Source: Candidatus Woesearchaeota archaeon (GTDB lineage Archaea; Nanobdellota; Nanobdellia; Pacearchaeales; GW2011-AR1). Taken from it: a stretch of DNA of 64,000 nucleotides. The notes beneath the pieces are model-generated. The model was not told where the DNA came from, searched no databases, and saw nothing but the letters and a program-made list of their open reading frames with translations. The stretch is from NCBI GenBank assembly GCA_964530955.1, contig CAZHCL010000001.1, forward strand, positions 49,381-113,380. The letters run 5' to 3'. A program made the position numbers and the translations under genes. Of the stretch, positions 23,968 to 55,195 are shown piece after piece. Position 1 is the stretch's first letter; the number at the start of each line of letters is the position of its first letter.

Positions 23968-24429
23968 TTATAAAGCTTTGCCCATCTCTTTTTCGACAGT
24001 TTTTGCGACGTTTTTAAGCTCTTTCCTGAAATCAACAAACTCAAAAATAACAATTATCATCATAATAACCATTATTCCATCTATGGTAATACAATCATTG
24101 CAAATTTGCTTAAGCACAAAAAGCTGTAAGGAAATAAAATAGACTGCGAATACAGCACCAATTATTGTGGCTAGAAGAAAAGCCCAATATATGTTCTTTT
24201 TGAATCGTGCTATGAGGAAGAGTATGAAAAATATTGAAAATGAAACAAGACCAAACCAGGCAAGTTTTATTCCAAACAGTGTGCCGTAAATTGAGTTTTG
24301 AACGAATGAACAGGAAGAGCCTGTTGTACATAGATAATTGTTACTCCCGGAATATCCAACATAGAAGCAAAGAACAATTTCGGCTATTATGAGGAGCCCA
24401 AGAATTAAATCATATTTTCTTATTTTCAT
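23968..24429 (-). CDS. Vitamin K epoxide reductase (VKOR) family protein
   Basis: C-x5-C loop (LCTTGSSC), SIYGTLFGI, four TM helices, CNDC redox motif. Confidence 0.82.
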   Translation of the reverse strand: MKIRKYDLILGLLIIAEIVLCFYVGYSGSNNYLCTTGSSCSFVQNSIYGTLFGIKLAWFGLVSFSIFFILFLIARFKKNIYWAFLLATIIGAVFAVYFISLQLFVLKQICNDCITIDGIMVIMMIIVIFEFVDFRKELKNVAKTVEKEMGKAL

Positions 24430-44940: not shown

Positions 44941-45108
44941 ATGAAAAGAAAGGAAAAGGACAAGCTTACGATTCTAGTTGATAAGGATATAAAAGAAAGT
45001 TACAAACAACATTGTGATACTCATGGGTTGATTATGGGAAAGCAGATTGAATTGTTCATGGAAAATGAGCTGAAGAGAAAAGAAGAGAGGAAAAATGATA
45101 AGAAGTAA
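44941..45108 (+). CDS. Ribbon-helix-helix (CopG/ParG-like) protein, absent from ORF track
   Basis: MKRKEKDKLTILVDKDIKESYKQHCDTHGLIMGKQIELFMENELKRKEERKNDKK*: alternating strand KLTILVD, helix, G turn, helix; overlaps the next start. Confidence 0.75.
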   Translation: MKRKEKDKLTILVDKDIKESYKQHCDTHGLIMGKQIELFMENELKRKEERKNDKK

Positions 45109-45856
45109 GAGAGCCCAAATAGGAATATGGGTGATAATTGCAATATGTATTGTTGGAGTAATGGCTTTGCTGTTTTTTTTGAGCAAAAAACCTACCATAC
45201 TTCCTCAAAACGAATTTAATGCACAGAGTTCAATTGAAAAATGTGTTAGGGATTCAATAGGCGAAGCAGTTGAAAAAATGATTCCTCAGGGAGGATTGAT
45301 TCTTACTGGAGATTATAAAAGTTATATGAATATTAATGTGACTTATCTATGTGAGTATAAAGGTTACTTCAAACCGTGCATATCTCAGCACCCTATGTTG
45401 GTGAATGAAGAAATAAAACAAATACATGACTATATTTATCCGAAAATTGACCTTTGTTTCTCAAATGCAAGAGACGAACTTCAAAAGAGAAATTATGATG
45501 TGTCTCTTGACCCTAATATGGAAATAAATATTTCTCTTGGTTCTGGAAACGTTTATTCTTTTATTCAAAGAAAAATGAGTGTTTCTAAAAATAATCAGAC
45601 AGAATCTTTCAATAAATTTAATATTGAATTTGCTAGCCCAATATATGACCTGACAAATGTTGCAGTGGACATAGCAAGTCAGGAAGCAAAATACTGCTAT
45701 TTTGAATATGTGGGATATAACCTTCTTTATCCTAGATTTGATATTAGCAAATTTACTTTTTCTGATTCAACAAAGATATATATCATAAAGGATAACTATT
45801 CTAATAAAGTAATGAATATTGCAGTAAGAGGCTGCGCAATTCCTCCGGGAATATAA
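45095..45856 (+). CDS. Class III signal-peptide (pilin-like) protein, paralog A
   Basis: KRA/QIGIWVIIAICIVGVMALLFFL; shares YLC...Y...C, YDL, YP motifs with 49725..50489. Confidence 0.8.
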   Translation: MIRSKRAQIGIWVIIAICIVGVMALLFFLSKKPTILPQNEFNAQSSIEKCVRDSIGEAVEKMIPQGGLILTGDYKSYMNINVTYLCEYKGYFKPCISQHPMLVNEEIKQIHDYIYPKIDLCFSNARDELQKRNYDVSLDPNMEINISLGSGNVYSFIQRKMSVSKNNQTESFNKFNIEFASPIYDLTNVAVDIASQEAKYCYFEYVGYNLLYPRFDISKFTFSDSTKIYIIKDNYSNKVMNIAVRGCAIPPGI

Positions 45857-45859
45857 AAG

Positions 45860-48800
45860 ATGGTGAAAAAAATAAATAAAACGATCTATGGTGCGGTTAT
45901 ATTTCAAATAGCATTAATGATGGGAATGACTGTGTCATTTTCATATATTCTTAATGAAGCTTCAAATACTGGAGCAACTGTAGGTAATTCCAATCAAAAT
46001 GGGATTCAAAAAGTTCTTCTGCATGCACTTTGGATTCTTGACAAAATAGTTTTTAATCAGAATAACTTTGCTTCTGCTCTTTCACAGAGTGATTTGAAGC
46101 AGTGATGCTATACCTGACATATTGATAAAAATGGATCAATATGTCAAGAATATCCTGCAAGTGATTGTGCTGGGCAATGTTCTGTTAGTTGTTTGCCTAC
46201 TGCTGCTGACCAAACTTCTGTCTGCAAAGTGGGAACATGCTACGATCCTGTTCAGGGAACATGTCAAACAGGAGCTCCTCAGGAAGCATGCCAGCAGAAT
46301 GGAGGAAAGTGGTTTAATGACCCCTATGGAAATGTTGCACAATGCATGCCTGGATGCTGCCTACTTGGAAATAGTGCTTACTTTCTGACTTCACAGCAAT
46401 GCGCTAGAAATGCAAATGCCACGGGATTAAAAAGTGATTTTAGACCTGAAGTAAACACTGAAATTGGATGTCTTGCTCTTTCACAGACTCAGGAGCAGGG
46501 AGCATGTGTATTTGAAGACAATACTGGATTACAAAATACTTGTAAATTTACGAGTAAACTTAATTGCCAGCAGGATTTGAAAGGAAAATTTTATTCTGGA
46601 CTATTATGTTCAAATTCTGCATTAAATACAAATTGCAAGCCTCAGGCAAGCATAAGCTGTATCCAGGGAAAAGATGAAGTTTACTGGATAGACTCATGCG
46701 GAAATCAGGAAAATATTTACGATGCAAATAAGGTGGCTAGCTTTAACAATGGAAATATTTTAAGTAAAAATAATAGTTGCTCTCTTTCTGTTGGAACAAA
46801 TTCTTTAGCAAATCAGGCAAGTTGTGGAAACTGCAATTATCTTTTGGGAAGTATTTGCGGGACAAAAACAAGCACGCAAAAATTATCTGAACCAAATGCA
46901 AATGTTGTATGCAAAGACATTTCATGCATTGATGAAAATGGAAAGAAAAGACTGAATGGAGAATCTTGGTGTGCATATCAGAGTTCAACAGGAACAGAAA
47001 AAGGAGCAGGAGGATACTTGAGAGCTACAGATACTGTAGGGTCGAGAGATTTCAGAGAATCATGTATTAATGGAGAGATTAAAACTGATCCTTGTGCTGA
47101 TTACAGAAATGAAATATGCACGCAGTCACAGACCACCACTCCTGATGGAGAAATATCTTCTGCTGCCTGCAGAATTAATTTAGGATATCAATGTTATGAC
47201 TATAATTCAAAGGGGAAAAAAGATTTCTGTGACCAAAATCCTGACTGTTTTATAAAACATGTTCAGGTAACTGATAGTTTTGTATTTGATATTTGCGCTC
47301 CAAAATATACTCCTGGATTTGACTTGACCGCAAGAGGAGGGAGTGCTGCAAGTATTTGCTCACTCGCAACACAAACATGCACTGTTGTTTATGTTCACCA
47401 GCTTTTCGGAGGATGGAAGTGCAAAGCAAATTGTGATTGTGAGACACCAAAATTTGCTGAGCAGATGAACGACTTATGTATTTCATTAGGCGATTGCGGG
47501 ACAAAAACAAATTATCTTGGAGATTTAAGTAAAAATAGTAGAACAATAAAAGATGGAAGAACTGGAGGTCCTACTTTAAGCAGCGGTTACATTAATGGTT
47601 TGGTAAAAGATGCAAACGAAAAACTTTTCAAAAATAATTATATTGCCGCAGGAGATCCTTCCAAGTTATATGCTCAACTCGGGATTCCAGGTTGGCTTGG
47701 GCAGGCGCAGACTCCTACTGATCCTACAATTGGCATAAGAGGAGTAGCGTCGATGGTTTCCGGTATGGGTGGAGTAATGCTTTGGGGATTGACACATCTG
47801 GCTGTTGGCCATGCTGTTTTAAGCTCGGTCGGGTTAATGGTTCCTCTTCAAGGGCCTACCCTTACGGGAGCTCCTCTTGGAAGCGTAGTAAATCCTACAT
47901 TCGGAGCAATCAGTGGAGCAGCAAGCGGAGCTGCAGTTGGATTAGCAATAGTTTCATTCTTAATTGATTTTACAGGAATTGGTCCTGGAATTCCTCCTGA
48001 ATTAACTTATGGTCTAATGGCAGCAGGAGCGATTGGAGGAGCAATTGTCGGATTGCAAATTACAGGCCATTCAGCAGTAATTGGAGTCCTCTCAACAAAT
48101 CCTGTTGGATGGATAATCCTGGCGGTCGTAATTATAATTATAATAATTCTTTCAATACTTGGAATTGGAAAGATAAAGAAAATAAATTATACTTTCCAAT
48201 GCAATGTCTGGCAGCCGACACCTGGAGGAAATAAATGTAGTCAATGCGGAAGCGATGGTTTTCCATGTAGTCAATATTCATGCCAAAGTTTGGGACAGAC
48301 TTGTCAGCTTGTGAATGAGGGAACTGCAAATCCTGCTTGTGTAAATATGGCTCCTAATGACACTTCTCCTCCAGTAATTACTCCTTACTCTGGATTGCTA
48401 CCTGATGGATATACTGCTAATGTTGTGCAAAATGGTGTGCAAATAAAAGCATCTGGAAATGGAGGATGTATTTCTGAAACTTACCAGCCAATTACTTTTG
48501 GAATATTGTTAAATGAATATGGACAGTGTGCAGTCAGTAGTAATCACACTTCTTCATTCGATGAAATGGATCAGGTATTAAGCGCAGGATTATATTTACA
48601 GAATCACAGTTTGCCGATACTAGTTCCGAGTGCAGAAAGTTTGGGATTAGAAAGTTTTGACCCTAATGCAAGTGCAGATTACAATATTTATGTCAGATGC
48701 CAGGATAAATCTGGAAATGCAAATATGAATGAGTATGATATTAATTTCTGCATAAAACCTGGAAACGACACTACCCCTGCGAGTATTATAGATAGTAATC

Positions 48801-49702
48801 CTTCTTTTGGTACTGTTGCGTATAATGTAACAAATATAGATGAATCAATAATAACAAGTGAACCTGCAGAGTGCAACTGGGATATTACAGATAAAGTATA
48901 TAATTTAATGGCAAATAATTTCAGCTGCCAGAATAATATTGAAAATAGAACTAGCCTTTCTTTGGTCAGCCCTTCAGGATGGGAATGCAATGCCCAGTTG
49001 CCTTTCGCAATGTCTCAAAATTCTAGCACATATTATGTAAGATGTCTAGACCAACCCTGGCTTACTGGAGAAAATGTTAGCAAGAGAAATGTAAATACTC
49101 AGGGCTATCCTCTGACTTTTACTCGAACGAAAAATCCTTTGAATATTACTTCAATAAATGTGGATGGAAAGAATTTAACATTTGGAACAGCTCCTGCGAG
49201 TGTTGAAGTTGATGTAAAAACTTCTGGAGGATTGGATGGAACTGCCAAGTGCTCCTATATCTGGGGCAATTCTACAATTGATTTTATGGATACTTGGAAA
49301 ACAACCAGCACACAGGTTTTTCAGAGCATATATCCAGGTACTATAACTCTTCCAATAGTATGCCAAGATTCTATTGGAGATGTAGCGCAGAAAACAGTTC
49401 ACTTTAAGATATTACTAGATACTTCTGCTCCCGAAATAAGTAGAGCTTATGTTCAGTCAGGAACTTTGAATATTATAACTAATGAAAAATCAAGCTGTTA
49501 TTACAGCACAGATATCAGCCAACAGTGTTTGTTTGACATGAATAATGCAAGCCAGTTTAATGGAGTAAACATTGTATCTCACACTATAAGTTTTGATACT
49601 AAAAATACATATTACATAAAGTGCAAAGATTCTTTTGGAAACTATCCTGGAACATGTAATATGATAATAAGGCAGGGCAATTATGAGTCGCAACAATTAT
49701 AA
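45860..49702 (+). CDS. Giant Cys-rich surface protein (1280 codons) interrupted by in-frame TGA at 46103 and 46115; readthrough, pseudogene or sequence error unresolved
   Basis: ORFs 45860..46105 and 46193..49702 share one frame; intervening codons read Q*CYT*HIDKNGSICQEYPASDC and align to paralog CCEKTLSGLSCQ. Confidence 0.75.
46115..46146. repeat. Perfect 12-bp inverted repeat starting at the second in-frame TGA
   Basis: TGACATATTGAT-AAAAATGG-ATCAATATGTCA. Confidence 0.95.
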
Positions 49703-49724
49703 ATGTAAAACATCTGGTTTATCC

Positions 49725-50489
49725 ATGCAGGCAAAAAAGGGACAGGTAGCTATATTTGTGATTATTGCAATTGTTATTGTTGGAGCGATACTTCTTATCT
49801 TTTTGTATCCAAAAATTCCAATCATTAGTCAAAATTCAGAACTCTCTCCTGTTGCTTATCTAAAAAGTTGCATAACTCCTGAAATAAATAAGGATGTCTT
49901 ACTTCTTTCAAAGAATGGAGGATATGCAAATCCTGAAGGTGTTCTTGATTATCAGGGAGATAAAATAAAATATTTATGCTATACTTCTGAATATTACAAA
50001 ACTTGCGTTGTTCAACAGCCTTTGATAAAAGAGCATTTTGAACAGGAGCTCAATACTCTTGTACATAGTAAAGTAAATGATTGCGTTCAGAGTTTAAAGC
50101 AGGAATACATAAACAGAGGATACGATATAACTCTTGGAAATATTGAAAGCAAGACAAGTATTAATCCGGATAATATATTAGTTTCTATCACCTCTCCTAT
50201 TACTGTAAGCAAGGCAGGGGCATCTCAAACCTTTAACGGATTTGATGTTCAAATAGGGAGCAAGATGTATGACCTGCTCATGATAACTGTCAGCATAATT
50301 GATTATGAATCGACATTGGGAGACAGCGAGACTACATTGTATCTTCAATATTATCCTGATTTGAAAATAGAAAAGGTTAAATTGAGTGATGGCAGTAAAG
50401 TTTATACTCTGACCGATGTTGTTAGCGATGAAAGCTTCAGATTTGCGTCGAGAAGTCTTGCCTGGCCGCCAGGTTATGGAGGAGCATAA
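49725..50489 (+). CDS. Class III signal-peptide (pilin-like) protein, paralog B
   Basis: MQAKKG/QVAIFVIIAIVIVGAILLIFL; ATG at 49725. Confidence 0.82.
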   Translation: MQAKKGQVAIFVIIAIVIVGAILLIFLYPKIPIISQNSELSPVAYLKSCITPEINKDVLLLSKNGGYANPEGVLDYQGDKIKYLCYTSEYYKTCVVQQPLIKEHFEQELNTLVHSKVNDCVQSLKQEYINRGYDITLGNIESKTSINPDNILVSITSPITVSKAGASQTFNGFDVQIGSKMYDLLMITVSIIDYESTLGDSETTLYLQYYPDLKIEKVKLSDGSKVYTLTDVVSDESFRFASRSLAWPPGYGGA

Positions 50490-50491
50490 AA

Positions 50492-52024
50492 ATGGAAGAA
50501 AAAAATAAAATAATGAAAGGGATTTTGTTGCTAGTCGGATTGTCTGTTTTTATTCTAGTAGCTAATATAAATTTTTCATCTGCAGATGGACTTAATCAGA
50601 CAATTTGCTGTGAGAAAACTCTTTCTGGACTTTCATGCCAAAATGTTCCGCAGGATCAATGCAGTCCTAATTCAAGACAGGCTCCAACTTCATGTGACTC
50701 AACTTCATTCTGCAAGCCAGGAGTTTGTTATAATTCTGTTCAGGGAACATGCTTAGACAACACTCCTCAAATAACTTGCAATTCTAATGGAGGAGTATGG
50801 AGTGCACAAACACCCCCACAATGTTCTCTAGGATGCTGTATTCTAGGCAATCAGGCAGCTTTCGTGACTCTTACAAGATGTAAATACTTATCCTCTTCTT
50901 TAGGATTACAAACTAATTATAACAATAATGTACAGGATGAAAATCAGTGTATTTTACAAGTTCAGAATCAGGACCAGGGAGCCTGCGTCTATACTGATCA
51001 ATTCCAGAAGACTTGCAAGTTTACAACAAGAGGAGAGTGCGGAGCTAATTTAAATGGCACAAGTGCACAAGCGCAATTCTTCAAAGACAAGTTATGCAGT
51101 GCTCCAGAACTAGGAACTAACTGCGCGCCTACGACAAAGACTGCCTGTATTCCTGGAAAAGATGAAGTTTATTTTGTTGATACTTGTGGAAATCCGGGAA
51201 ATATTTATGATTCTTCAAAAATAAATGACCAGGATTACTGGACAAATGTAAAAACTAAAGACCAATCATGCAGTCCTTCATCAGGCAATGCAAATTCACC
51301 TAACTGCGGTAACTGCAATTATTTATCCGGAAGCATTTGCAGAGCAGCTAATTCAACTGGACAAAAGCCAAGTTATGGAAGTTATATATGCCAAGATTTA
51401 AACTGCGGGAAAACATCAGACGGAAAATCTTACAAGCAGGGAGAATCCTGGTGCGTCTACAATGATCAGGGAGGAAGTTCAAATTCGAACAATGCAGTTG
51501 GAAGCAGATTCTACAAGCACATTTGTGAAAATGGACAGGAAGTTCTTGAGCAATGTGCGGACTTTAGACAGGAAGAATGCATTCAAGATAGCATACAAAC
51601 TTCAGCTGGGCCTTTCTCTCAGGCAGCATGCAGGGTAAACCGATGGCAGGATTGCACTGCTCAAACTAACAAAGCTGACTGCGCTAATAGTGATAAAAGA
51701 GACTGCACCTGGGAAGCGGGAGCAGCAATAGGAAATTCAACTGGCGGAGCTTGCATTCCGACTAATTCTCCCGGTTTACAGTTCTGGTCTGGAGATCAAG
51801 CTCAGAGTATTTGCTCGCAGGGAAATGCACAGTGCATAGTTACATTCGAGAAAGGACTTTTTGGTGGAGAGACTTGCAAAAGTAATTGTCAATGTTTAAC
51901 ATCTGGATGGCAACAGCAAAGAATCCAAATTTGTGAATCTCTTGGAGACTGCGGACCAAAAATAAACTGGATTGGAAGCCAAGGATACAAAGCAGGATAC
52001 AATCTTACTATCCGAAAAGCATAA
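50492..52024 (+). CDS. Secreted Cys-rich protein matching the N-half of the giant protein
   Basis: Signal peptide; shared motifs GCC.LGN, QGACV, GKDEVY..D.CGN, GESWC.Y, CAD.R.E.C, LGDCG. Confidence 0.85.
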   Translation: MEEKNKIMKGILLLVGLSVFILVANINFSSADGLNQTICCEKTLSGLSCQNVPQDQCSPNSRQAPTSCDSTSFCKPGVCYNSVQGTCLDNTPQITCNSNGGVWSAQTPPQCSLGCCILGNQAAFVTLTRCKYLSSSLGLQTNYNNNVQDENQCILQVQNQDQGACVYTDQFQKTCKFTTRGECGANLNGTSAQAQFFKDKLCSAPELGTNCAPTTKTACIPGKDEVYFVDTCGNPGNIYDSSKINDQDYWTNVKTKDQSCSPSSGNANSPNCGNCNYLSGSICRAANSTGQKPSYGSYICQDLNCGKTSDGKSYKQGESWCVYNDQGGSSNSNNAVGSRFYKHICENGQEVLEQCADFRQEECIQDSIQTSAGPFSQAACRVNRWQDCTAQTNKADCANSDKRDCTWEAGAAIGNSTGGACIPTNSPGLQFWSGDQAQSICSQGNAQCIVTFEKGLFGGETCKSNCQCLTSGWQQQRIQICESLGDCGPKINWIGSQGYKAGYNLTIRKA

Positions 52025-52064
52025 ATACTTCTTATTCTTTCTGAATTGGCACTTGGTTGATAAA

Positions 52065-52760
52065 ATGAAAGGTATCAATGGATTGCAAAAAATAGTTTTG
52101 GCAGGTTCTTTATTAGGATTTACTGGCTGCGAGAACATGAGCGAGTATGAGCCTTCTTCTCAAAATAGATTAAATTCTGCAATATTTAGTGGCGCTGCGC
52201 AAAATGCTCCAACTCAGGGAAGTAGGGTTGCGTGGGGTCTTCTCGGGCAGGCATATGCTGCAGAGGCAGCACATCAGGAAAGGATGGCTGAAGCTGCTGC
52301 TGGGAGAAGCCAGATTAATATTAATCAAAACCAGTATCCTACGCAAAATAGTTCTGCAAATAATGGAACTCAATTCACTGCAACCATATATCCTAGAATG
52401 AATTTGTGGACTGATAGGAATAATAATGGGCAGGTTGAGGCTGAAGAATTGACTGAGACAAATAATTTTCATGTTATGCAGTGGGCAATGCCTTCATTTT
52501 ACAATGAGTCTAAATTTCCTATAAACGCTGAAATTATAGTAACGGATTCATCAAAAAAGACAATTATAGATGACTGCTGCGTTCTCGCTCCTTGCCCTGA
52601 TTCGGCCCGGGCAACCATTAAGTTTGTCTATTTTACAGATGATGGAACAAATAATATGAGTCCGTATAGTGTTGCCTTTAATGTTATAATGGATGCAAGA
52701 ACAGTTCCAGTCAAGAAAAGTACATTAATTGTTTATTCAGTTAACTTTCTTCCGAAATAG
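52065..52760 (+). CDS. Putative lipoprotein of unknown function
   Basis: MKGINGLQKIVLAGSLLGFTG/C lipobox-like; DRNNNGQVEAEE EF-hand-like loop; ATG at 52065. Confidence 0.6.
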   Translation: MKGINGLQKIVLAGSLLGFTGCENMSEYEPSSQNRLNSAIFSGAAQNAPTQGSRVAWGLLGQAYAAEAAHQERMAEAAAGRSQININQNQYPTQNSSANNGTQFTATIYPRMNLWTDRNNNGQVEAEELTETNNFHVMQWAMPSFYNESKFPINAEIIVTDSSKKTIIDDCCVLAPCPDSARATIKFVYFTDDGTNNMSPYSVAFNVIMDARTVPVKKSTLIVYSVNFLPK

Positions 52761-52834
52761 ATGCTATTTAATGTGAATAACCTTTTTTCATAAATATTAA
52801 GAATATTTATAAACATAAAAATTCTTGATAAAGG

Positions 52835-55195
52835 ATGAGGAAAGAGCTGAAAAAGAGGGCTGTATTTTTTAGTGTAATTTGCCAAATATTTTTGTTGATA
52901 GGGACAAGTTTTGCTTTTGCTTTTTTAATTAGTGATAATTTTGTTAATGCAGCAGGAGGAATTTTAGGTAGTTCAGCCCCTGCTCAGACAACTCCAACAC
53001 CAGTATATATTGCCAAGACTCCCAGTGCGAGTATTATTGGAACTGGCAGCAGTACTCAAGCGGCTGCATTGTCTCCAATACAAAACTTTCCTGCCGGAGG
53101 GATTACAATACCTAACACTTTTGAAGTGAATAATCCTACATTTGGTGGTCTTGAAACTTGGTCTCAGGGAAGCACAATTAAAACTCAAGTTTATGATTCG
53201 GCCGCAGGGAAATGGCAATTATCGGGTACATATTCTGATGGAACAACTTGGAGTGAATCTGTTGACCAGGGTACCTTTAACCAGATACTCACTAAATCAG
53301 GATACCAACAAATACCTCAGGCGCAGGCGAAGATACTAGGAATAGGTCCTACTGTGAGTGGCGGATTTTCTTATCTTGTTCAGGGATTAAACTATGCAAT
53401 ACTTGTTGCAGGAGTGATACAACTTATTGGGCCCCTCATTGGTCTTAGTTCTCAGACTACAAAGGCATTAACTGTTTCTGCAATTGGAGGAATTATCGCC
53501 GGTAAAGCTGTTGGTTCTCTTGGGGCAGCAGGTTTTGGGAAGGAAGCTAACTTAATAGGCGGAAAATTCGGTAATTGGCTTACGGGTGGTTATGGCCAGT
53601 TTACAGTTGGAGCAATAGTTGCAATAGCGATATTTATTGCGATGTATTCATCTGAATCAAAGAAACTTGTTAACTTCCAATGCTTGCCATTTGAGCCTCC
53701 TCTTGGTGGGAGTCAATGCGAGCAATGCAACAAAGATCCTTTCAGACCATGCTCCGAATATAGATGCAGATCTCTTGGACAGGCATGCCAATTACTTAAT
53801 GCTGGAACAGGGCAAGAACAATGCGCCTGGGTTGGAAGTAATGATGTGAAAAGCCCAACTATTACTCCTTGGGATGCAGCATTATCTCCTTTCGGATTGA
53901 AATATTTACCTGACACTGCAGTAAGACCTCCCGCAATAGGAACTAAAATAGTAACTTCGAGCGGAGGATGTCTTCCTGCTTTCACTCCTCTTCAATTTGG
54001 AATAACAACTGATGAGCCTTCGCAATGCAAGATAGATTACAATCACACTTCTTCATTCGATGACATGCAATATTATTTCGGAGGAAGCAATTATTATGCA
54101 TATAATCATACTGAGCAGCTTAGATTGCCGGGGCCAGATACTGGAAATAACAGCATCGCTCCTGAGATAAAGAATGATGGAAGTTTCTCATTGTATGCAA
54201 GATGCAGAGATGCAAACGGAAACTTTAACGTCGATGAATATGCATTTTCATTCTGCGTTGACAAGGGACCAGATACAACGCCTCCAGTGATAGAAGGATT
54301 TTCTATACCTTCTGGAAGCTATGTTGGATTTAATCAAAATACAGTTCCTATTGAATTATATGTTAATGAGCCATCAGAATGTAAGTGGAGCACTCAAAGT
54401 AAGGCATATGATGACATGGAAAATTCTCTGACATGCTTCACTCAGAGTTATCAGGTCAATGCTAACTTACAATATACTTGCTACGGAAATGTTACTGGAG
54501 TTACTAATAATCAGGATAATAATTATTATTTCAGATGCAAAGATCAGCCCGGAAAGCCGGACAACCAAAGAAATGTCGATGTACAAAGTACTCTTCTTGA
54601 TTTGAAAGGCTCACAACCACTGGTGATACTTTCTGCTTCACCTAACTCAACAATTACTGGAAGCGCAGACACTGTTCCAGTAACTCTTCAGCTTGAGACA
54701 AGCGCAGGAGCCCAGGGAAATGGAAATGCTACGTGCTATTTCTCGCCTACTGGAGAAAATGATAGTTATATTGCAATGTTTGAAACAAATAGTTACTTGC
54801 ATAGCCAGGACTTGAATCTACCTAATGGAAATTATAATTATTATTTCAGATGCATAGACTTAGGTGGAAACGCAGCGGAGGCAAACACGACTTTCAGCGT
54901 ATCCGTGGACAAGCAAGCTCCTCAGGTGACAAGAGTTTACAAACAAGATGCTCTTAAAATAGTCACAGATGAAAGTGCCGAGTGCAGTTATTCACTTACT
55001 TCCTGTAATTTTGATATTTCAGATGGATTGAAGATGATTTACTCCAATCCAGATATAAGGAATAATTTGTATGCTGAATGGAAACCTAGCAGCACATATT
55101 ATATAAGATGCAGAGACTTGTTTGGTAATGAACCTTCTCCTAATCAGTGCAGCATTGTTGTAAGTGCAGTAACTCTTACTGGTAAAAGCAGTTAA
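52835..55195 (+). CDS. Surface protein matching the C-half of the giant protein
   Basis: N-terminus ICQIFLLIGTSFAFAFLI like 45860; Gly/Ala hydrophobic region; FQC...GG..C..C, CQSLGQ/CRSLGQ, NHTSSFD, RC.D..GN, DT..P, YYIRC.D.FGN. Confidence 0.88.
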   Translation: MRKELKKRAVFFSVICQIFLLIGTSFAFAFLISDNFVNAAGGILGSSAPAQTTPTPVYIAKTPSASIIGTGSSTQAAALSPIQNFPAGGITIPNTFEVNNPTFGGLETWSQGSTIKTQVYDSAAGKWQLSGTYSDGTTWSESVDQGTFNQILTKSGYQQIPQAQAKILGIGPTVSGGFSYLVQGLNYAILVAGVIQLIGPLIGLSSQTTKALTVSAIGGIIAGKAVGSLGAAGFGKEANLIGGKFGNWLTGGYGQFTVGAIVAIAIFIAMYSSESKKLVNFQCLPFEPPLGGSQCEQCNKDPFRPCSEYRCRSLGQACQLLNAGTGQEQCAWVGSNDVKSPTITPWDAALSPFGLKYLPDTAVRPPAIGTKIVTSSGGCLPAFTPLQFGITTDEPSQCKIDYNHTSSFDDMQYYFGGSNYYAYNHTEQLRLPGPDTGNNSIAPEIKNDGSFSLYARCRDANGNFNVDEYAFSFCVDKGPDTTPPVIEGFSIPSGSYVGFNQNTVPIELYVNEPSECKWSTQSKAYDDMENSLTCFTQSYQVNANLQYTCYGNVTGVTNNQDNNYYFRCKDQPGKPDNQRNVDVQSTLLDLKGSQPLVILSASPNSTITGSADTVPVTLQLETSAGAQGNGNATCYFSPTGENDSYIAMFETNSYLHSQDLNLPNGNYNYYFRCIDLGGNAAEANTTFSVSVDKQAPQVTRVYKQDALKIVTDESAECSYSLTSCNFDISDGLKMIYSNPDIRNNLYAEWKPSSTYYIRCRDLFGNEPSPNQCSIVVSAVTLTGKSS

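Follow-up and report, generated by a model that had tools for sequence, protein, structure and literature searches.

A two-module operon of pilin-type, cysteine-rich surface proteins in Pacearchaeota and its candidate role in adhesion or contact

We analysed a stretch of 64,000 nucleotides (hereafter the window) covering positions 49,381 to 113,380 of contig CAZHCL010000001.1 (assembly GCA_964530955.1, deposited as Candidatus Woesearchaeota archaeon). The source genome is of the Pacearchaeota type, has 761 kb and is 82.7% complete. At positions 44941-55195 of the plus strand the window carries an operon of seven closely packed genes, and the gene downstream lies on the opposite strand. The operon measures 10.25 kb, i.e. 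approximately 1.3% of the 761 kb. It encodes two paralogous sets of proteins, each combining a pilin-type signal with large cysteine-rich and repeat-bearing products. We propose that these proteins form a complex at the cell surface, which may be used for adhesion or contact.

The first gene of the operon (44941..45108, +) encodes a small DNA-binding protein of 55 amino acids (aa), similar to ribbon-helix-helix (RHH) proteins, and overlaps by 14 nucleotides (nt) the start of A1 (45095..45856, +). The latter encodes a protein of 253 aa with a class III signal, one transmembrane (TM) helix and an alpha/beta ectodomain. It is followed by B (45860..49702, +), a frame of 1280 codons that is interrupted by TGA codons in this genome. 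B starts with a TM anchor, which is conserved, and continues with a Cys-rich head (aa 81-560; 46100..47539, +; 43 Cys). Next comes a hydrophobic core rich in Gly and Ala (aa 626-775; 47735..48184, +), delimited by hydropathy and composition, which closes with a strong TM helix followed by KIKK. The remainder is a Cys knot with four repeats that appear to be immunoglobulin (Ig)-like (48185..49699, +), a region rich in glycosylation sequons and with sub-threshold matches to Ig-like domains. The end of B overlaps by 20 nt with A2 (49683..50489, +; 268 aa), a paralog of A1. Three genes complete the operon. C (50492..52024, +; 510 aa) has a signal or anchor helix and a Cys-rich head with 43 Cys, and is the free-standing equivalent of the N-terminal half of B. 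D (52065..52760, +; 231 aa) has a lipobox-type signal (LLGFTGC) and separates C from E. E (52835..55195, +; 786 aa) has a B-like N-terminal TM helix, a variable linker, a Gly-rich hydrophobic core, a Cys knot and four Ig-like repeats.

The duplication is supported by three alignments. A1 and A2 are 29% identical over 251 aa (E = 1e-32). C shares 40% identity with the N-terminal half of B over 450 aa (E = 9e-88), and E shares 28% identity with its C-terminal half over 664 aa (E = 2e-65). On these alignments, module 1 is A1 plus a fused B, and module 2 is A2 plus the split pair C and E, with D lying between the two. This duplication is an old one, because A2 is 41-48% identical to A2-type orthologs elsewhere and only 25-33% identical to A1-type ones. 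The initial annotation, made from the sequence of the window, had described two copies of a cassette, each with a pilin-like protein followed by a giant secreted protein. We confirm the positions, the plus strand, the tight packing and the duplication itself. The giant protein stands for module 1, at 1280 codons, with the qualification that the frame holds two in-frame TGA codons here. It does not stand for module 2, where its counterpart is split into C and E around the unrelated lipobox gene D. The pilin-like and giant proteins are also not the whole content of the cassette, since the 55-aa RHH-like gene leads the operon.

This organisation is not confined to one genome. We found more than 260 B-type proteins of approximately 1210-1460 aa, unnamed or called 'hypothetical', and all of them come from metagenome-assembled genomes of Pacearchaeota or Nanoarchaeota. 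Three other loci (L002-L004), in which B is only 36-42% identical, keep the order small gene-A-B-A'-C, with E or D and E coming next where these are present. The flanking neighbourhood is also conserved across genomes and includes CobA-like and AI-2E genes and PheRS. Among 12 further genomes of the same family, the twin arrangement was seen in five and a single split module (A-C-E) in another five; of the remaining two, one carries both modules in fused form and the other carries both in split form. Of 150 genomes sampled from the phylum, about two dozen, in roughly ten families, gave full-length matches to the stalk, i.e. to the Cys knot and Ig-like repeats. Within family f1 the stalk was present in 3 of 3 sampled genomes and the A family in 27 of 27. 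The repeated fission and fusion between head and stalk argues that the two act as one unit.

The most informative variants are those in which the parts are joined further. In two genomes (G197 and G002), single open reading frames (ORFs) of 1098-1275 aa join an A domain with its class III signal to the head's distal half, the knot and the Ig repeats. Their fusion into one chain argues that A, head and stalk work together. The fused homologs (L008/L009) have only one hydrophobic helix, located at the N-terminus, and lack the Gly/Ala core. Two consequences follow from this. Because there is a single N-terminal TM helix, the head, the knot and the Ig repeats would share the extracellular side with the pilin-type ectodomain. 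Because the core is missing, it would be dispensable for the function of the family, and the conservation of the individual segments agrees. The mean pairwise identity is 35% in the core, 40% in the Ig repeats, 49.5% in the head and 56% in the Cys knot, so that the core is among the least conserved segments, with many gaps.

The cores of B and E contain approximately 18-20% Gly, and that of B is about 150 aa long. A glycine zipper would be expected to be a conserved, family-essential, Gly-rich hydrophobic segment, and the core, at 35% identity and missing in L008/L009, does not have this character. In B and E, the core most likely crosses the membrane an even number of times, i.e. it would be a hairpin anchor.

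The head spans about 480 aa, and about 40 of its Cys are invariant across the family. Only the knot is more conserved. The total count is 64 Cys in B and 43 in C (8.4% of the residues of C). The AlphaFold2 model of C (predicted local distance difference test, pLDDT, 80.6) consists of small beta modules arranged in a row. This model matched no known fold significantly, either in Foldseek (E ≥ 0.08) or in VIA (best Z 4.3), and a profile of the B/C family retrieved nothing meaningful among Protein Data Bank (PDB) sequences. Weak local matches to FnI- and CBM14-like modules were seen in VIA (Z ≤ 4.3). The likeness is one of layout, with small beta-hairpin units held by disulfides (local matches at Z 3.1-3.6), and the Entamoeba Gal/GalNAc lectin is among the low-probability Foldseek rows for the same model. 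These scores are in the noise range, however, and neither the modules nor the lectin have sequence similarity to the head.

The stalk opens with a highly conserved Cys knot (C..W.P.GG..C..C...PC..Y.C.SLGQ.C). In the repeats, RC.D..GN-type and DT..P motifs occur in two to three copies each, both in B and in E. E gave a Big_13 (PF19077) match at 23.3 bits and five homologs gave 13.9-20.2 bits, all of them under the 27-bit cut-off. The repeats of the homologs also gave sub-threshold matches to Big_13, DUF4625 and Y_Y_Y. In the ESM Atlas, the structural neighbours of E outside the family are chains of Ig-like domains; apart from these, the Atlas returned only unnamed Nanobdellota clusters. Together these observations suggest that the C-terminal repeats are Ig-like in fold. 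The resemblance to Ig-like adhesin chains (Big_13, DUF4625 and Y_Y_Y) lies in these recurrent sub-threshold Big_13 matches and Ig-chain neighbours. In contrast with such chains, the repeats of the operon each have conserved Cys pairs and an RC.D..GN motif, and they come after a unique Cys knot and a predicted membrane hairpin. The stalk has 15 N-glycosylation sequons where 9.2 are expected, a number reached by 3% of the shuffled sequences. Family-wide, sequon density is 1.46 per 100 aa in the stalk and 0.28 in the head. The initial annotation had described dense Cys-rich modules, a Gly/Ala-rich core and RC.D..GN and DT..P motifs, and the composition and motif counts bear it out. One E ortholog (L024 5868-8252; genome G249) has a LysM domain (35.7 bits, above the cut-off) in its variable linker, between the N-terminal TM helix and the core. 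Among the 388 proteins that we collected, a LysM-like segment was found in this protein only.

An intervening gene between C and E, at the position of D, was found in six other loci (L017 3823-4443, L018 3516-4139, L019 2012-2791, L021 9316-10032, L022 8804-9799 and L024 5086-5820). The products have approximately 200-330 aa, and all have an N-terminal signal. A lipobox (...G-C) is present in the counterparts from L017, L018, L019, L022 and L024, whereas in the signal peptide of the L021 counterpart this Cys is missing. A jackhmmer search detected no similarity between D and these positional counterparts. From position and sequence, we regard D as a fast-evolving positional gene.

The A proteins carry the pilin-like character of the operon. 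The N-terminus of A1 reads KRA/QIGIW and that of A2 reads KKG/QVAIF (the slash marks the predicted cleavage site), in each case followed by a hydrophobic TM segment. The class III (prepilin-type) signal was defined in the manner of FlaFind, by a short basic leader, a [KR][GA] cleavage site and a hydrophobic helix of about 20 residues, with Q at +1 marking the EppA class. The A proteins have all of these features. In an alignment of 45 members, Q at +1 is nearly invariant and is preceded by K/R-G/A. Among the EppA-processed pilins of Methanococcus maripaludis, EpdA has the site RAQI, and EpdB and EpdC have the site KGQV (PMC4371748). A1 (RAQI) and A2 (KGQV) match the EpdA and EpdB/C sites of that table letter for letter. 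The likeness to EpdA-E and other class III proteins thus covers the basic leader, G or A at -1, Q at +1 and the hydrophobic helix, and a peptidase of the A24 family is encoded in the genome (Peptidase_A24, PF01478; 54 bits, above the cut-off; contig C6). The class III signal proposed by the initial annotation is therefore supported. The homology to Epd pilins is nevertheless limited to the signal. Glu at +5 is not present in the alignment of the A family, the proteins have about 250 aa and are larger than typical pilins, no pilin fold was matched, and no assembly genes are adjacent.

The ectodomain of A1 is of alpha/beta type, with six conserved Cys and a conserved C-terminal CAIPPG. Its AlphaFold2 model (pLDDT 90.9) shows a TM helix at residues 5-29, a low-confidence linker and an alpha/beta domain. 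It gave no significant match to known folds in Foldseek (E ≥ 6e-3) or in VIA, where a ribosome-biogenesis factor ranked first at Z 6.2 and POTRA-like domains reached a Z of approximately 5. No pilin was retrieved by Foldseek, and in VIA the only one was GspK at Z 4.3. A profile of the A family found nothing meaningful among PDB sequences. The domain is nonetheless very widespread: of 401 genomes sampled across the phylum, 369 have a match (a tally that takes in five unpublished genomes, G322, G243, G396, G244 and G333, which are used for no other statement here), and it also matches 6,530 protein clusters at 50% identity. Elsewhere in the present genome, on another contig, a further A-domain protein is encoded, the third of its kind (616 aa; KRGQ class III signal; L007 1501-3351; G000 contig C12:20281-22131). 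Two small TM proteins without a Pfam family precede it, and A-domain proteins of the same type, with approximately 610-650 aa, recur among genomes of the family.

Genes elsewhere in the genome could support the maturation of such proteins. VKOR is the membrane oxidase of an extracytoplasmic disulfide-forming pathway. The window encodes a VKOR homolog (24049..24390, -; PF07884; 58.7 bits, above the cut-off) approximately 21 kb upstream of the operon, and two DsbA-like Thioredoxin_4 genes are found elsewhere in the genome. The presence of these three genes makes extracellular disulfides plausible, and together with the approximately 40 invariant Cys it lends weight to the disulfide-rich ectodomain that the initial annotation had suggested. 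The genome also has a homolog of STT3/AglB, which fits the enrichment of sequons in the stalk.

Scans of all seven proteins against Pfam, NCBIfam and PHROG gave nothing above the cut-offs. With the profile searches against PDB sequences, they agree with the earlier statement that no member belongs to a characterised family. Two findings would have spoken against the initial annotation, namely a full match of these proteins to a known S-layer or other characterised family and a gene order that is kept in no other genome. We looked for both and found neither, as the cassette order is conserved in many genomes. Literature searches found no published description of the locus, although the library was limited and this is not a proof of absence.

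Our favoured interpretation is that the operon encodes a membrane-anchored, disulfide-rich heteromeric surface complex that is used for adhesion or contact. We give this joint statement a probability of about one half, and the part concerning an extracellular complex is much firmer than the part concerning adhesion. The operon would produce one complex, located on the outer face of the cell membrane and existing as two paralogous versions of ancient origin. In each of them, the class III signal of A1 or A2 is probably cut by the A24 peptidase, which would leave one hydrophobic helix in the membrane. The head, formed by the N-terminal half of B or by C, would consist of approximately 450 aa held together by about 20 disulfides. 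The stalk, formed by the C-terminal half of B or by E, would consist of the Cys knot and four glycosylated Ig-like domains, tied to the membrane by the Gly/Ala-rich hydrophobic hairpin, and the core would then be only an anchor. Module 2 would gain the fast-evolving lipoprotein D. The homology, the gene order, the fusions, the signals and the supporting machinery are observed in the sequences. Beyond these, the parts would bind one another, with both large domains facing outward, and the complex would mediate adhesion or contact with a surface or a partner cell.

Several hints point to adhesion. Small disulfide modules are common in binding proteins, and the operon combines them with Ig-like stalks, a LysM domain in the predicted outer linker of one E ortholog and a hypervariable lipoprotein in module 2. 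Host contact, as proposed by the initial annotation, is a possible role. Other observations weigh against our interpretation. The head is among the best conserved parts, unlike a fast-evolving adhesin involved in host recognition, and the operon lies in a conserved core-genome neighbourhood. The charges after the last helix of the core (KIKK, or KK with E) would place the stalk in the cytoplasm by the positive-inside rule, whereas we favour an outward topology because the homologous fused forms have a single TM helix. The model of A does not look like a canonical pilin fold, which has a long, unbroken N-terminal helix on a beta-sheet or an Ig-like domain. LysM is limited to one ortholog. Finally, three sampled genomes, which we guess from their size and single-contig state to be those of cultured symbionts of the Nanoarchaeales type, have no match to the A family.

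The main rival explanation is a structural envelope scaffold, i.e. an S-layer, or an anchor or spacer beneath one (like SlaB under SlaA in Sulfolobales), that serves cell integrity and not contact between cells. Proteins that are glycosylated, membrane-anchored and built of multiple Ig-like domains are typical envelope components. A scaffold would be consistent with the presence of the operon in all sampled genomes of family f1 (27 of 27 for the A family, 3 of 3 for the stalk), with its conserved neighbourhood (CobA-like, AI-2E and PheRS genes) and with the good conservation of head and knot. We nevertheless consider it unlikely. The genome has a separate S-layer candidate, a protein of 800 aa (L030 2812-5214, -; G000 contig C16) that matches S_layer_C at 26 bits for a cut-off of 23.9, and no protein of the operon matched S-layer families at E ≤ 1. 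To our knowledge, a Cys content of 5-8% is unlike that of known S-layer proteins, which we count against the scaffold. Furthermore, B tolerates nonsense codons in the present strain and some relatives retain a single module.

A second, less probable alternative is that A1 and A2 are minor pilins capping a type IV pilus, with the large Cys-rich and Ig-like proteins carried at its tip. This would resemble minor pilins with PilY1, or PilB and PilC of Streptococcus sanguinis; the latter two join a class III signal and N-terminal module to a functional module that is adhesive or binds glycans (PMC8179133, PMC9934059). The class III signals with Q at +1 are compatible with it, as are the A24 peptidase and two PilB-like ATPases encoded on other contigs of the genome, and the fused A-head-stalk proteins match the layout of modular pilins (PMC8179133, PMC9934059). 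However, B, C and E have membrane anchors of their own, which cargo borne at a tip would not need. No assembly genes of the PilB/PilC type were found in or beside the operon, either in the window or in L001-L004 and L010. The A proteins lack Glu at +5, and the model of A1 has a low-confidence linker instead of a continuous pilin alpha1 helix, with GspK at Z 4.3 as the only pilin match in the PDB. We regard a pilus tip as unlikely.

Two known systems come closer to the complex that we favour than a pilus fibre does, and by analogy our complex would resemble them more. In the bindosome of Sulfolobus solfataricus, proteins that bind sugars and bear class III signals are placed in the envelope by the PilB/PilC-type Bas proteins, and not in a fibre (PMC4371748). 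The shared trait is that large non-pilin surface proteins have pilin-type sites, which makes the bindosome the closest match to the behaviour proposed here for A and for the fused A-B proteins. Unlike it, the operon shows no homology to substrate-binding proteins, the proposed partners of A are giant Cys-rich and Ig-like membrane proteins, and no Bas-like genes are linked. The modular pilins share their layout with the fused homologs of 1100-1275 aa in G197 and G002. They differ in that the modules of the window are separate genes and the large proteins are self-anchored. In addition, there is no homology between them, and no vWA or lectin domain is present.

The initial annotation had read the core as a membrane-inserting element of a pore or fusion device. 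Such a device, which could form pores, fuse membranes or bridge cytoplasms with a Gly/Ala 'glycine-zipper' entering the membrane of the partner, now appears improbable. It takes its appeal from the long Gly-rich hydrophobic segment that B and E carry between two ectodomains. It could also point to the first VIA row for the head model, domain IV of the archaeal fusexin Fusexin1 (Fsx1; 7p4l; Z 4.3 over 52 residues, root-mean-square deviation 2.3). Yet a Z of 4.3 is in the noise range, and Foldseek retrieved neither a fusogen nor a pore-former; the comparison with the three-domain, beta-rich class II fold of fusexins and HAP2 covered the head (C) model only. The core is poorly conserved (35% identity and many gaps), it is missing in fused homologs that keep head and stalk, and it ends in an ordinary strong TM helix. 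The last alternative, in which a virus, a plasmid or some other mobile element carries the operon as cargo, is close to refuted, because the RHH-type leader gene and the slightly raised GC content (0.40 across 46-54 kb compared with approximately 0.34) that could suggest it are outweighed by the operon's presence in every sampled genome of the family and in the same chromosomal neighbourhood where B is 36-42% identical, by the lack of PHROG matches except for the RHH gene, by the absence of any noted integrase or repeats, and by the fit of the GC rise with coding content rich in Gly, Ala and Cys.

Among uncultured archaea, Pacearchaeota and related groups are some of the most abundant, and the surface complex that we favour would bear on how their tiny cells hold to partners or surfaces. 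One may go further and see in it a new kind of surface machine that is restricted to Pacearchaeota and related Nanobdellota. Such a machine would exist in two versions, each with a pilin-primed, disulfide-knotted head carried by an Ig-like stalk, and would dock the ultra-small cell to a partner cell or to its wall glycans. It would form the physical basis of episymbiosis in this uncultured lineage, without a counterpart among known adhesins, S-layers or pili. This extended claim is in our opinion doubtful. The protein families and the two modelled folds (A1 and C) have no known relatives, but the general kind to which they belong, class-III-signal proteins in the archaeal envelope or with adhesive modules, is already known. 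What is new here is the core-less 'Rosetta-stone' fusions, the segment conservation figures, the phylum-wide extent of the A domain and the exact match to Epd sites, together with the support genes (VKOR/DsbA, AglB and A24), the separate S-layer candidate and the origin of the two TGA codons. The A domain, found in 369 of 401 genomes and yet without a name, a Pfam family or a known fold, is a concrete target for further study through its ectodomain. The head with its many Cys and the stalk of knot and Ig repeats are two more such targets, and the fused and split variants indicate which of these parts should bind each other.

The TGA codons of B are specific to the present strain or its assembly. 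The frame that starts at 45860 has TGA at 46103-46105 and at 46115-46117 and is then open to 49702, so that under translation table 11 it yields two ORFs of 81 and 1169 aa. A sister contig from a metagenome (L001), 99.6% identical over 23.4 kb, has GGA and TGC at these positions and encodes an intact B of 1280 aa (P0001). Across 30 homologs, the first position is Gly and the second is Cys, and both are invariant. The use of TGA as a sense codon was rejected, as TGA ends 10 of 60 long ORFs of the window and other genes are not lengthened by recoding. Selenocysteine was also rejected, as it would require TGA to stand opposite Cys or Sec in homologs, and of the two codons the first is opposite the invariant Gly and the second opposite the invariant Cys. 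No tRNA-Sec was found above the Rfam cut-off in the 82.7%-complete genome. We read the two codons as strain-level nonsense mutations or a consensus error, and not as recoding.

Both codons are created by four substitutions relative to L001 within 17 nt (46103-46119). Three of the four perfect an inverted repeat, with a 12-bp stem at 46115-46146 and an outer helix (RNA fold z = -4.9), as would be expected from template-switch mutation at a quasi-palindrome. Since B has two nonsense codons, module 1 may be inactive in the present strain. In-frame stops (TGA, TAG or TAA) were also found in A- or E-type genes of four other genomes (G397:C15:116393-117163, G375:C2:52609-53336, G106:C1:31988-33787 and G193:C17:4083-4838). 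Judging from these sequences, one paralogous module seems to decay repeatedly across genomes.

The product of the leader gene gave sub-threshold matches to RepB-RCR_reg (18.6 bits for a cut-off of 21) and to the Arc-like repressor phrog_582, and jackhmmer detected no similarity between it and its positional counterparts. The same position is filled in L002-L004 by a gene of 47-65 aa, two of which align as RHH-like. In L003 (9028-9225) the leader gene looks like a winged-helix (wHTH) protein and not RHH, so that the position is conserved and the family is not. A second patch of divergence between the window and L001 lies in A2, where six consecutive third-codon positions differ at 49976-49991 between near-identical flanks. 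This looks like a short recombination event from a diverged strain.

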